Assembly: GCF_006345805.1 (NCBI RefSeq)
Contig: NC_043002.1
Location: 45,942,001 to 46,006,000 of the forward strand
Origin: Octopus sinensis
Taxonomy: Eukaryota
Length of the DNA stretch: 64,000 nucleotides
Direction: 5' to 3'
Shown: piece by piece, positions 12,156 to 59,321 of the stretch
How the letters are laid out: each line of letters opens with the position of its first letter
Position numbering within the stretch: the stretch's first letter is position 1
Program-made: the position numbers and the translations under genes
The notes under the pieces: model-generated
The model's database searches: none
What the model was told of the DNA's origin: nothing
Seen by the model: only the letters and a program-made list of their open reading frames with translations

Positions 12156-12570
12156 GTCAATAATAAAAGGGTAAAATTAATTAATTATTAATTAATTTTA
12201 TCAAGTAGTGTTCAGTATGTAAAAAGACCATTTACGGTACATTTAAAACATTGCTTTATATAATTAGGGTTCAGTAAATTTTGGGCTGACGAAGGAAATG
12301 TTGATAGGAGTATGTATTTCTAGCATCTCTTTATCCAACTAATCCAGAAATGGCGTTCTCAAGTAATCGATGTACGTGTGATCTTTCATTATTTTTCCCT
12401 CTATACCTACGTGAATTATTTTTGAGTATACATTGTCTGGGAGACTTTTCTTATAGTAGAAGAAATAGCTAAAATGTTTTGGCTGCTATTTCTAAAAGTT
12501 TGGTGTGTGGTAAAGTGAATTTTTTTTACTGAACCCTAATTATATAACGTAATGTTTTAAATATACCGTA
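12156..12570 (+). mobile_element. Older copy of the 43515 Penelope-like terminus, with 46-bp inverted arms (12233-12278 and 12525-12570)
   Basis: 12400-12570 aligns with 44270-44440. 12156-12278 aligns with the reverse complement of 44400-44515. Flanked by (TA)n. Confidence 0.6.
12281..12362 (+). ncRNA. Type I hammerhead ribozyme motif with extended stem II
   Basis: TTGGG-CTGACGA-A-GGA-AAT-GTTG...CAAC-TAA-TCC-A-GAAA-TGGCG-TT-CTCAA. Covaries with the 44181 motif. Confidence 0.65.
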
Positions 12571-12764
12571 TATATATATATATATATATTCCAAGAAAGT
12601 TAGAGGTGAATCCAACCAACTAAGGGATAATATCTATCCAATATACTGCTGGTAGAATACCCAATTATTAATACACAAGTGTTTTTTATTGCATTGCAAT
12701 TACATTACCGAGTGTAATAAATGGGTGAGAGTAAAGAGTTATTTTACCATTAATTTATAGAGCA

Positions 12765-13048
12765 ATAAGAAAATGGAGGGGATCAATAGGTGGTTCATCA
12801 ACTTTTAGACATTATATTATGTCAATTTATTTATTTACTAAAATGATAATTACAAGAATATACATACATGTATAACATATTATGCTTTACATATAAAATA
12901 TATAAAGATACTAGTTATGTAAAGCATAATATGTTATACATGTATGTATATTCTTGTAATTGTCGTTTTAGTAAATAAATAAATAAACTGACATAATATA
13001 ATGTCTAAAAGTTGATGAACTACCTATTGATCCCCTCCATTTTCTTAT
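12765..13048. repeat. Inverted repeat, ~130-bp arms, 22-nt spacer, abutting (TA)n
   Basis: 12765-12893 is the reverse complement of 12916-13048 with few mismatches. Confidence 0.9.
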
Positions 13049-14026
13049 CTCTCTCTTTATATATATATATATATATATATATATATATATATATATATGA
13101 GCTTTGGCTGGCCCAGAGTTATAGTAGAAGACACTTGCCCAAGGTGCTGCCCAGTGGGACTGAACACACAACCACATGGTTGGGAAGTAAGCTTCTTAAC
13201 GACAGAGCCATACTTTTGTAAGCCTTTTAGTCCTATCTCATTTCATATGTGATTCTCAACATTCTCAGTTCTGACTTGACTATTTCTGCCCAACTTTGAC
13301 TTGGTTCACAAGTTCCATGACTACTTCCCATCACCAGCAACAGATGCCACTATTGTGGTTGTCCAGCCTGTGAGAAACAGCAATCAAATCTCCCACAAAT
13401 CTACCATCTTAACAAAAAGAAACGAAAAAAATAGGAAATGCAGGGCACATTGGACGATGTAGTCATGGACACACAAAAAGATGTGATGGTCACAGCTGGA
13501 ACACTTTTGATCATAGATCAGCTGACTTGAAACTAAAAAAAGACACTTTCCATTACTACTTCATGGTACAGACACCTCAGTTTGTAAAAATGAGTAATCC
13601 TGCAACAGGATTTTGATATCCTATTGTTTTCTCTAATTTCTTCAACCTTTTCAAATTGCACATGACCCTATTCTAACAGGCCACTTTCAACAAGTTCTCT
13701 GATCAAAGTACATTTTAATTATATACAGCATTAGATTTCTGACAAGTATTGTTTATCTGTCTTTTGTGCTGAGAAAGAAAATGTTTTCATTACTTACAAT
13801 AGCAGTAGTTCTATCTTTTAACTTTTACTTATTTTAGTCATTAAACTGCAGCAATACTAAGGCACCACCTTCAAGGATTTATATATTAGCATATCAAAAA
13901 TAGCTACGAGGGTTTACTTGAACAAATTGACCCCTGTCTTCATTTTTTGAAGTTTAGTACTTACTCTGTCTTTAATCTCACATCATGTTTTTTTTTTTTG
14001 TTTCATTAAAAAATTTTTTTGTCTAG

Positions 14027-14105
14027 GGGACAAATCACTGATGTCGATAAGAAGTTGGTAGTTTCAAGAATGAGAAATTTTGTGAAAGAGAAGATTTCCA
14101 CTGAT
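14027..14105 (+). CDS. Gene 1 coding exon
   Basis: Acceptor ttttttgtctag|G and donor GAT|gtgagt. 79 nt, phase 2 to 0: GQITDVDKKLVVSRMRNFVKEKISTD. Confidence 0.85.
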
Positions 14106-56599: not shown

Positions 56600-56720
56600 T
56601 TGCCTTGTTGCAGTGTCAGATGATGTCCATGAATGTGCCTGGTTGTTCAAATGTCTTAACCTTGCCATTGCTCGTGGTAATTCTGTGAGCATATTGGCTT
56701 TCTTCAGTTGGTTCTGTTGA
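56600..56720 (+). mobile_element. CRE-clade non-LTR retrotransposon 3' fragment
   Basis: Reads ECAWLFKCLNLAIARGNSVSILA, resembling the CRE C-terminal consensus LFQRLSLAIxRGNA. Confidence 0.6.
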
Positions 56721-57845
56721 ACCTTGTGGTGTGTGACCAATTGAGGTATTTAGTGTTGAATTGGTGTTTTTTCTTTCTTTTACTTTCTTTCTTCCTCTTT
56801 TTTCTTTTCTTTAATTTTTTTTCTTTCTTCACTCATGTTTATGCTTTCTTCAGTTTTGGATTTGTATTTTAATGTGGCTGTGTATTATATATGTATCACA
56901 AACATACATGTTTTATATGTAATTATTTTCTCTGTTGGTAACGAAAAACAAGATACTGAAATGTATTCTGAATTGATTTGAAATGATTTTGAAATAGAAT
57001 GATCCTAACTATGGGCTGAACTGGTTATCAGACAATCTTCCATAAACCACAATTGTCTTTAAGGCTGGTGCTTTACTTTGCTTTCAATAGTATTGACACT
57101 CTGGATATGATTCTAGTCTTTACCATGGAGCCTTGAAAGAAATATTGCTAAGTATTTTGTCTGGTGTGCTAATGATTCTGCCAGCTCACTACCTTATTTG
57201 AAAATATAATAATGTTTGGGAAAAAATAGAAGGTAGAAGGAGGAGAGAGAGCAACAAAAGAGAGACTGGTTGAAGGATATTACAATATAGACTAGGATGA
57301 AAACATCAGAGTGTATAAAGAAAGTCCAAGACTAAGAAGGATAGAAAGAATTGGAAACAGAAAGTTAAGCAAGTACCCCAATTGTAGAATTGGTATCTTT
57401 TGCTTGTTTCAGTCACTGGACTGTGGCTATGCTGGAGCACTGCATTGAAGGGTTTAGTCTGAAAGATTGACTCTAATACTTATTTTTTATAAAAGTCTGG
57501 AACTTATTTTCTTGGTTTCTTTTGCGGAACCTCCTAAGTTATGGGAGACATAAACAAAATAACACTGGTTGTCAAAGTGGTGGGAGGAAAAACTACAAGG
57601 ACATAGACATACGTTGGCATACATATACATGCCATCATATACATTCACACACACACACACCACACACACACACACACACACACACACACCACACACACAC
57701 ACACACACACACATACACACAATCTCTCTCGTTCCTTCTCCCCCCCTCTCTCTATATATATATATCATCAGTGGATCATATTTCTGAAAAAGAAGCACAC
57801 TCTAAAAGTTAGAGCTGTAATATATGTAAATATATGTCTGGTCAT

Positions 57846-57973
57846 AGAGTGACCAATGGTTTTGTATCCATAAAGTGCTTAGCTTTATAGATGACTCACC
57901 AGAATCCAATGGCTGCAGCCATTGGAGTCTGAAGAGTTGTCTATAAAGCTAAGCACTTTGTGGATGCGAAACT
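57846..57973. ncRNA. Inverted pair of hammerhead motifs forming a palindrome centred on CTGCAG
   Basis: Plus 57924-57973: GGAGT-CTGAAGA-stem II-C-GAAA-C, then cut by (TA)n. Minus 57846-57907: GGATT-CTGGTGA-stem II-C-AAAA-CCATTGG-TC-ACTCT. Confidence 0.6.
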
Positions 57974-58870
57974 AATATATATATATATATATATATATAT
58001 ATATATATATATATATATATATATGAATATATACATGCATATATGTACATACCTACATATATTTGTATATATACAAGCATATATGGGTACAGGACATCAA
58101 AAAAACATGAACAAAATGAGAAACGAGAACATGAAAAACAGACGTTTTTTTTTTCGAACAATGAAAAAAACAAATAGAGAAACGAGACAGGCAACATAAA
58201 GAACAATCCCTTCATCAGTTCTCCCCTGTTTTATCTACTCTGTGTTTCGATGTAGCGACTTCATTAAAATAGTCGTTTCCACAAAGCAAATTTAAAAATT
58301 TGGGATTTGCAGAGGGTTAAAGTAGTGACAAAAACAGGACAGTGAGAACAAAACAGTAAAAACAAACGGTAAGGGCTGTTAAGCCATAATGAGGTGAAGT
58401 AGTGAATGCTGGAGAAACGAGCTTTGAGAAGAGACAGAAATCCTGTTCTGTCTGTCTTCTTTCCTCTCTCTGTTTCTCTCTCTGTCCCCCTCTCTCTCTA
58501 CTCTTTTACTCTTTTACTCTTTCACTTGTTTCAGTCATTTTGACTGTGGCTATGCTGGAGCACTGCCTTTAGTCGAGCAAATCAACCTCCAGGACTTATT
58601 CTTTGTAAGCCTAGTACTTATTCTATTGGTCTCTTTTGCCGAACCACTAAATTACAGGAACGTAAACACATCAGCATCGGTCATCAAGCGATGATGGAGG
58701 GAAAAAACACAGACACAAACATACACACACACATACATACATGCATGCATACATACATACATACATACATACATATATATGTATGTATATATATATATGT
58801 ATGTTTGTATGTATATATATATGTATGTAGGTGTATATATATATATATATATATATATATATATATATAT

Positions 58871-59321
58871 AGCAATAATAATTCTCTAAACGAGATATAG
58901 ACAGTAACTGCTCCATAACATAAGGGACGTTAGCCATCCGAATGTGAACGTCCCTTATGTTATGGAGCAGTTACTGTCTATATCTCGTTTAGAGAATTAT
59001 TATTGCTGTCGAGCAGATTTTCTACATCAGTAAAGGTATTTACTGTGAAAATCTTTATATAGATAGCCTGCACAGAGAGTCGTTCGTCGAGGGGCGGTGC
59101 CTGCCATACATTGATAATAGGCAAACACCTTGAAACCTGGGTCCGTATGTGGCATCTGCTTCTTCGGGGAATGATCTCCCTTTGCAGGCTAGAGGACGCC
59201 GTGATGGCGTCAGCCCTCCTGGTGACGTTGATGATCGCCTGGGGCTACATGCATCAGTAACACCCCCACCGCCCTGCCCTGTCCCTAGCCACATTCGGAT
59301 GGCTAACGTCCCTTATGTTAT
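58871..59321. repeat. Double fold-back element between (TA)n tracts
   Basis: 58871-58931 pairs with 58947-59007. 58915-58946 also pairs with 59290-59321. Confidence 0.88.

Follow-up and report, generated by a model that had tools for sequence, protein, structure and literature searches.

Which kind of element has placed hammerhead-shaped motifs next to TA microsatellites in the octopus genome, and do these motifs act as ribozymes? The question is raised by 64,000 nucleotides of Octopus sinensis (contig NC_043002.1, positions 45,942,001 to 46,006,000; G000:C6:45942001-46006000 within the 2.72-Gb assembly), a stretch that is referred to as the window. An initial annotation had proposed at least eight hammerhead motifs in it, from about five unrelated families, all in short non-coding elements. 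It is well supported that the feature is real and of a known kind, namely hammerheads in the pseudo-long terminal repeats (pseudo-LTRs) of Penelope-like elements (PLEs) together with non-LTR retrozymes, inserting at (TA)n. Dimer-type hammerheads in PLE ends and in animal retrozymes have already been published. New are a catalogue of families, a counted rule for two insertion ends and a lineage with the core change A6U; the functions proposed below are inferred from the sequence.

Each motif was read base by base. Type I hammerhead anatomy was found at seven of the eight proposed positions, which mark the lower coordinate of each motif; the eighth (59081, plus strand) was out of register, and this register was dropped after family F copies had been aligned and the bases read, which places the hammerhead at 59105-59149. 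The motifs lie in six insertions, one from each of six families termed A to F (long and short denote the two 3′ end sites described below):

12156-12570, arms in both orientations: family A insertion, a fold-back of a 583-bp non-coding unit with (TA)n flanking both ends; inverted arm about 12157-12278 with the long 3′ end, sense arm about 12276-12570 stopping at the short site
12281-12362, plus strand: family A hammerhead; stem I 12281-85/12358-62, canonical core 12286-92, long stem II, GAAA 12347-50, predicted cut after 12357
30784-30990, minus strand: family C insertion, the terminal 207 bp (pseudo-LTR end) of a PLE, 5′-truncated, a single arm embedded in a (TA)n tract
30882-30919, minus strand: family C minimal hammerhead; core 30914-30908 with A6U, stem II of 4 bp plus a bulged A, palindromic stem III of 2 nt, predicted cut after 30887
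42949-43274, minus strand: family D insertion, the 3′ end of a Hydra-type PLE, 5′-truncated, a single arm with the long 3′ end
43165-43212, minus strand: family D hammerhead; core 43208-43202 with G5A damage, palindromic stem III
43512-44520, arms in both orientations: family B insertion, a fold-back of a young non-coding tandem unit of 557-558 bp with (TA)n flanking both ends; minus arm 43512-43961 to the short site, plus arm 43977-44520 to the long site
43705-43757, minus strand: family B hammerhead of the minus arm, damaged by G16.2A, which disrupts stem III
44181-44233, plus strand: family B hammerhead of the plus arm; intact canonical core, 6-nt palindromic stem III, predicted cut after 44229
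57766-57973, arms in both orientations: family E insertion, a fold-back of an old Hydra-type PLE 3′ end; arms 57766-57915 (minus) and 57916-57973 (plus)
57847-57906, minus strand: family E hammerhead, damaged by A6G, G12A and a mismatch in stem I
57925-57973, plus strand: 5′ half of a family E hammerhead, cut off by (TA)n ahead of the cleavage site
58871-59319, arms in both orientations: family F insertion, a fold-back of a 358-bp non-coding tandem unit with (TA)n flanking both ends; short inverted arm from 58871 with the long end, sense arm 58947-59319 to the short site
59105-59149, plus strand: family F type I hammerhead of canonical geometry; 6-bp stem I from 59105, short stem II, U3-A8 core UUGAUAA 59111-17, GAAA 59132-35, predicted cut after 59143

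Four of the window copies are damaged (43165, 43705, 57846 and 57924). The family A copy has a single C-to-U change in stem III, giving a U-G wobble, and the family F copy has one mismatch, at the closing pair of stem I. Four of the six insertions (A, B, E and F) are fold-backs, which agrees with the statement that most are, and C and D are single arms. The proposed link to TA microsatellites holds for all eight motifs, which lie at most 340 nt from a (TA)6 compared with 14% of random window positions, except that the end of the D copy is followed by merely a short TA run.

Each element was then searched against its own genome, and 30 loci per element were retrieved. Every window motif belongs to a multi-copy family. 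Exact patterns matched 12,974 times for lineage C, 2,852 times for the A/B lineage and 127 times for F, with no match for reversed-pattern controls. Families A and B are homologous (69-73% identity over 225 and 73 nt, both termini in common), so that the five unrelated families become six families in five lineages. Relatives of E are mostly 74-85% identical, and B copies and arrays 97-99%. The core is canonical in A, in 51 of 55 distinct B copies and in 22 of 43 E rows (column counts). It is mostly CCGAUGA (U4C) in D, while F has U3-A8 in 26 and U3-G8 in 11 of its 38 copies (together 37/38). On their sequence, A, B, D, E and F thus have type I hammerhead cores, D and F through the natural variants U4C and U3-A8 described in PMC3088659. 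Of the non-canonical cores initially noted, those at 43165 and 57846 are private decay and that at 59081 was a misreading. In family C, CUGUUGA was found in 25 of 25 aligned copies. The A at core position 6 that defines a type I hammerhead is absent there, and C is classed as hammerhead-derived and not as a proven member.

Half of the families, namely C, D and E, are no non-autonomous RNAs but 5′-truncated 3′ ends of protein-coding PLEs. The earlier description of all elements as non-coding holds for the window copies; it fails for families C, D and E, which carry PLE genes upstream. Extension of the flanks, which had been suggested, revealed a reverse transcriptase (RT) plus GIY-YIG upstream of C and endonucleases upstream of D and E. 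The proposed connection between PLEs and type I hammerheads with a short palindromic stem III is borne out.

In family C, 14 of the 30 loci extend upstream via a simple-repeat-rich untranslated region (UTR) into a GIY-YIG frame. One locus (L181) contains a complete element in partial tandem with 4.5 kb between the motifs, and its protein shows DKG, YIDD, a CX4CX2C linker and two cysteines within GIY-YIG. The partial tandem, which forms the pseudo-LTR, and the 5′ truncation are PLE traits. Both are shared with the Neptune/Nematis-type endonuclease-containing (EN+) PLEs as described by Craig et al. (2021, PMC8557442), as are DKG, the RT, a CX2-5CxxC linker, the two cysteines inside GIY-YIG and the (TA)n target. 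The linker and the CCHH cysteines are present in C, which would make it a candidate for either the Neptune or the Nematis clade, the linker being common to both. Family C differs from this description in its single fixed 3′ end, the lack of outward fold-backs (0/29), the A6U hammerhead and a simple-repeat-rich 3′ UTR of about 0.9 kb.

For family D, 40 matches were obtained with the upstream region as query; 29 other loci were retrieved, and 16 of them have the D hammerhead on the same strand, within 1.5 kb of downstream flank. The translations contain a CxCX5C linker, a GIY-YIG that lacks the cysteine pair, and the CxxC and CxH motifs. CxCX5C, CxxC and CxH are the signature of the Hydra clade (PMC8557442, section 11), for which the lack of the cysteine pair, the position of CxxC/CxH around a conserved E and N, a 3′-end hammerhead and a TA preference are also described. 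The U4C core is a difference. Four family E loci translate to an endonuclease C-terminus that is 36% identical to that of D, lies about 290 nt upstream of the hammerhead and likewise has CxxC and CxH. The Hydra-clade endonuclease motifs are thus present in D and partly in E, and the RT motifs RWK and DKT would lie beyond the stretch reached. Fragments of at least one more PLE type, with another linker and GIY-YIG spacing, were observed at L126:1-846, L131:244-1235, L178:3-486 and L083:2084-2422, near F, D and A insertions and apparently nested at shared microsatellites.

By their sequence, the units of families A, B and F qualify as non-LTR retrozymes (Cervera and de la Pena, 2020, PMC7229834; Li, Clavereau and Pollet, bioRxiv 10.64898/2026.07.22.740005). 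As in the animal retrozymes described there, non-coding tandem units carry one type I hammerhead each, range from monomers to multimers and have PLEs alongside. The units of 583 (A), 557-558 (B) and 358 bp (F) lie inside the reported 51-972 bp, and their longest open reading frames starting with Met have 42, 102 and 79 amino acids, respectively. Head-to-tail duplication was found in 15 of 16 distinct B insertions, in 23 of 28 for F and in 2 of 29 for A, where the reference is only part of the unit; for A, hammerheads in consecutive units were seen in few loci (L069/L080, L083). In one B array, 16 motifs spaced 551-558 bp apart share a strand, and one more lies on the other. Unlike the published retrozymes, A, B and F carry the complete insertion signature of a PLE, with a TA target, two fixed ends and an inversion joined back to back; they are known here from DNA, and a homologous PLE pseudo-LTR was not found among the retrieved loci. 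PLE-like frames near some A, B and F loci (L002, L083, L126, L131, L193) were rejected as partners, with microsatellite or unrelated DNA in between or the order wrong. The young family B is a good candidate, by its sequence, for an active circular RNA. No RNA record was listed as containing family B. Four B contig sets span all 30 bins, one with a tail-to-head joint, which tandem DNA gives likewise, and 0 of the 40 listed contig base differences fall in the core, stem I or stem III, with 19 further rows existing; both results were used neither way.

The ends of the insertions connect the two groups. Ends were counted after overlapping loci had been merged, with 85,560 positions as background. 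The 3′ end is followed by (TA)4 within 24 nt in 27/27 (B), 27/28 (C), 34/37 (A), 35/42 (F), 24/42 (D) and 19/42 cases (E), compared with 3.7% of the background. The 3′ ends of A, B, D, E and F insertions fall mainly at two sites, separated by 45-140 nt, and those of C at one. These sites differ from the ribozyme cut, which is located about 40-290 nt upstream. Altogether, 61 fold-backs have both ends visible: 49 combine one long with one short end, one has two short and none two long ends, and 11 have an end elsewhere. The long-short combination was found in B 11/11, A 7/8, D 11/13, E 9/15 and F 11/14, where position 45 equals position 403 (one unit apart) and was recoded as long by hand (scripted, six long-short plus five such). 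The inner junctions of the arms vary freely, unlike the fixed 3′ ends. Inversions were counted in 13 of 29 (D) and 15 of 27 cases (E), both families having the two fixed ends. In L002 each arm is longer than one unit, so that its template was circular or multimeric, or two RNAs were used.

Inverted 5′-truncated copies with a tail at one end and a preference for (TA)n are known PLE traits (PMC8557442). The proposal that the fold-backs are inverted partial copies of the PLE type is confirmed, and the same two-end rule holds for D and E, which have PLE genes. In vitro work on the lizard PLE Poseidon of Anolis has shown that both AT-rich strands are nicked and that RT starts at two internal sites, which define the tail and lie downstream of the hammerhead (Frangieh et al., 2024, PMC11167929). 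The tails are longer here, with about 45 (F), 55 (E), 85-95 (A, B) and 140 nt (D) compared with 30-40 nt in Poseidon, and the rule of one long plus one short end was counted from genomic copies, whereas the Poseidon result was obtained in vitro. Metazoan pseudo-LTR hammerheads as described by Cervera and de la Pena (2014, PMC4209133) resemble those found here in the short stem I, the extra nucleotide between A9 and stem II, the palindromic 15.2-16.2, the U3-A8 covariant, the many families per genome and the prevalence of single truncated copies, with some opposite-strand pairs 100-700 bp apart.

Stem covariation is present in the A/B lineage. In 10 variants with 17 pairs, 95.9% of the cells are paired compared with 29-45% in slid controls, and 6 of the 17 pairs are changed on both sides, which was equalled in 7 of 500 shuffles. 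Between C and a sister family there is one G-C/C-G swap in stem I. The palindromic stem III is predicted to pair between two copies with −5.5 to −13.1 kcal/mol. Between the covarying helices of the A/B stem II (for example 44193-44216 of the window) lies an AAU/UAA internal loop that is invariant in all 10 variants and is a candidate for a tertiary contact or a protein site.

Taken together, we regard it as probable that the PLE ends (C, D, E) and the short tandem units (A, B, F) are copied by the same kind of enzyme and that the hammerheads would cleave only as stem III pairs, as the structure predicts. A tandem master copy would be transcribed, and paired hammerheads would cut the multimer to unit-length RNA, which for A, B and F likely circularizes by analogy with published retrozymes. 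A PLE protein with RT and GIY-YIG would then nick (TA)n and begin reverse transcription within the RNA, at either of the fixed sites that lie about 40-290 nt downstream of the cut. If both nicked target strands prime, one per site, two 5′-truncated cDNAs would be joined back to back and give a fold-back with outward 3′ ends; rolling round a circle or reading a multimer would yield arrays with as many as 16 hammerheads on one strand. The majority of genomic copies are dead products that are single, truncated, mutated or self-sequestered, and all six window copies probably belong to these. The read-through RNA of the window B insertion, for example, is predicted to form a single long arm-to-arm hairpin that buries the intact motif at 44181-44233.

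Several observations weigh against this reading. The retrieved loci are best matches to window queries only, which biases them to young copies and, for A and E, to inverted ones. The A/B covariation set was gathered by the 5′-core pattern or the descriptor and the structure was drawn from the same sequences, which makes that test favourable. Isolated motifs fold no better than shuffles (z +0.6 to −1.4). A coding partner for A, B and F was not found in the retrieved loci, a genome-wide partner search not having been made. For family C, Pfam detects RVT_1 (E 8e-9), with GIY-YIG (E 4e-4) scoring 21.2 and thus just below the cut-off of 22.6; the reading frame of L181 is broken in several places, and no unbroken full-length C frame was seen. 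For D and E the RT core was not reached, also when single loci were extended. From the literature, minimal PLE hammerheads are reported to cleave weakly even as dimers (PMC4209133), one of nine tested frog retrozyme dimers cleaved (bioRxiv 2026.07.22.740005), and for the lizard PLE cleavage was dispensable for insertion in vitro and RNA-seq gave no ends at the cut site (PMC11167929).

Could the motifs be chance matches within AT-rich repeats? In the window alone, the descriptor gave two sites with a perfect core versus one in 10 shuffles summed, four versus 0-2 with one core mismatch and seven versus 4-8 with two. At two mismatches the matches are thus at chance level, and the case therefore rests on the family evidence. 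Rfam is equally silent: the 104 matches in the window up to E 10 include no hammerhead (miRNA-family matches were rejected as coming from AT repeats and hairpins), and eight loci gave no match at the gathering threshold. One descriptor match among the loci, within a common dispersed repeat, is probably due to chance. The genome sample gives a different picture. It comprised sixty 10-kb pieces of the 19 largest contigs (599,900 bases), taken at round coordinates and analysed with a descriptor fixed after the window families had been seen, and it contained 10 strict and 15 loose matches compared with shuffle means of 0.4 and 0.5 (ranges 0-1 and 0-2; 10 shuffles), so that the motif frequency lies above shuffled controls, as the initial annotation required. 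When five core positions were freed or relaxed, there were eight matches in the sample versus seven in eight shuffles summed, and the 95 distinct matches in 1.54 Mb fall nearly all within five core classes. Covariation in A/B and the placement of the motifs in PLE 3′ ends, which matches the published pattern, also argue against chance, which we consider highly improbable as an explanation; it is refuted for the families, and a single descriptor match may still be due to it. The sample also corrects the density. One motif per 8 kb was too high because damaged copies and both fold-back arms had been counted; there is one intact motif per 40-60 kb, which is 5-7 times sparser. This corresponds to about 45,000-68,000 intact motifs in the genome (Poisson range for 10 matches about 22,000-83,000), compared with about 2,000-9,000 given for Schistosoma, coelacanth and Xenopus in PMC4209133 with different descriptors. 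The postulated large and diverse pool is confirmed; the 10 strict matches appear to be ten different sequence families. Clean hammerheads of further unrelated families were seen in the sample loci L203, L214, L221, L222, L224, L240, L248 and L252, several with U3-A8 or a long stem II; that in L221 lies 291 nt downstream of a Hydra-type endonuclease. A further explanation is that the arrays and fold-backs of A, B and F arose at the DNA level, by unequal crossover or by transposition of miniature inverted-repeat transposable elements (MITEs) or foldback elements, with the hammerheads as passengers. The window copies do resemble MITEs, being long inverted repeats flanked by TA, and the arrays are 97-99% homogeneous. 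Such an origin would not account for asymmetric arms with 3′ ends at two fixed sites and free inner junctions, nor for the same end rule in D and E with their PLE genes; in addition, the 100 A/B matches listed include 20 neighbours on opposite strands at a distance of up to 2 kb, and every one of these points outward. We therefore find it unlikely.

Whether the motifs cleave in vivo is a separate matter, and here lineage C is informative. In its exact pattern positions 6 and 7 were left free, and yet U6 (CUGUNGA) was present in 12,543 of 12,974 matches (96.7%); most of the listed exceptions among the 431 others carry C, as expected from neutral decay. The first 100 matches have U (50), A (22), C (16) or G (12) at position 7, and all 30 loci examined have U or A at position 17. 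When none of the seven core positions was prescribed (13,756 matches), positions 3, 4, 5, 6, 8 and 9 were each 97-99% fixed in the first 100. Sister families with an identical stem II retain A6, together with U4C, and among the 95 descriptor matches U6 is confined to lineage C. A register that preserves A6 was rejected, as it loses stems II and I and the sister families align in the U6 register. Subfamilies have diverged at the two free positions and nevertheless kept U6, which points to selection on a hammerhead-like fold. The U6 pattern gave no match in metagenome contigs, a result without bearing on other animal genomes. An old, decayed relative of the family C PLE at L193:4100-5130 (minus strand), with a degenerate hammerhead about 770 nt downstream of the endonuclease, is useful for dating the A6U change.

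What this fold does can be read in two ways, each of which we hold only tentatively. The folds might serve the PLE protein as signals for binding or for RNA folding and be kept for that reason, with little or no cleavage in vivo; in lineage C, A6U would extend a hairpin (U4-G16.2, G5-C15.2, U6-A15.1) that switches catalysis off. Changes of A6 are reported to lower activity, with a kobs below 0.1 per min for A6C (PMC3088659), nearly all single and double mutants of the CUGA turn have low activity (PMC9901934), the lizard PLE inserts in vitro without need for cleavage (PMC11167929), and Naiad PLEs thrive without canonical hammerheads (PMC8557442). The predicted probability of the U6:A15.1 pair is 0.98, 0.82, 0.42 and 0.12 in four C subfamilies compared with 0.00 in two A6 sisters. 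A signal of this kind does not explain why the core is fixed save for position 7 (any base) and position 17 (U or A), the very positions that a working hammerhead leaves free, nor why C3, G8, A9 and G12 are fixed although unpaired in the predicted hairpin, which moreover is weak in the G7 subfamily. The other possibility, for which we would likewise claim no more than a minority chance, is that a natural A6U hammerhead, still able to cleave, serves a successful PLE lineage with at least four subfamilies and about 13,000 exact copies. The U6 hairpin would then be the off state of a single motif, opened by the PLE protein or by dimer pairing. U6 is absent from the main text of PMC4209133, and the papers listed for Penelope elements, retrozymes, hammerhead core variants, inversion and priming pointed neither to an A6U PLE hammerhead nor to the families described here; supplements and Lunse et al. 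(2017), the most extensive survey of variants of this kind, may list one. A 2026 octopus repeat annotation includes Penelope-like families, the words ribozyme and retrozyme not occurring in its main text (PMC13282606).

Further repeats were observed in the window. Three additional TA-flanked inverted repeats (11942-12098, 12759-13054 and 38941-39137) have no hammerhead match; the short terminal repeats of the first resemble what we take to be a Tc1/mariner-type MITE. A dispersed repeat at 58091-58420 (minus strand) has 10 matches in other loci at 66-88%, ends near a TA tract and contains a CUGANGA and a GAAAC word, yet fits none of the hammerhead descriptors applied; it could be another PLE end. 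Two overlapping RT frames of the long interspersed nuclear element (LINE) type, presumably of the RTE clade, are located at 3546-6010 (minus strand), with Pfam RVT_1 in both and a weak PHD match, and similar LINE copies adjoin many of the loci retrieved. A GC-rich 61-bp tandem repeat is present at 20577-20845 (4.4 copies) and, immediately downstream of the LINE, at 3103-3222 (1.9 copies); similar sequence is also found in other loci.

For PLEs, the counted rule (49 of 61 long plus short, none with two long ends, in five families) joins the two start sites found in vitro to the structure of inverted copies, and the same end signature on non-coding retrozymes is direct support for their mobilization by PLEs. 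With about 50,000 intact motifs in many families, none matched by Rfam, the octopus genome is a rich source of natural ribozyme variants. Lineage C represents a large natural test of the A6 requirement, with its A6 sister families as control, and bears on a question that is still open, whether in vivo the hammerheads of PLEs cleave or act as folding signals. If the A6U motif does cleave, it would be a conditional ribozyme beyond the accepted core consensus, of a type that standard descriptors miss.

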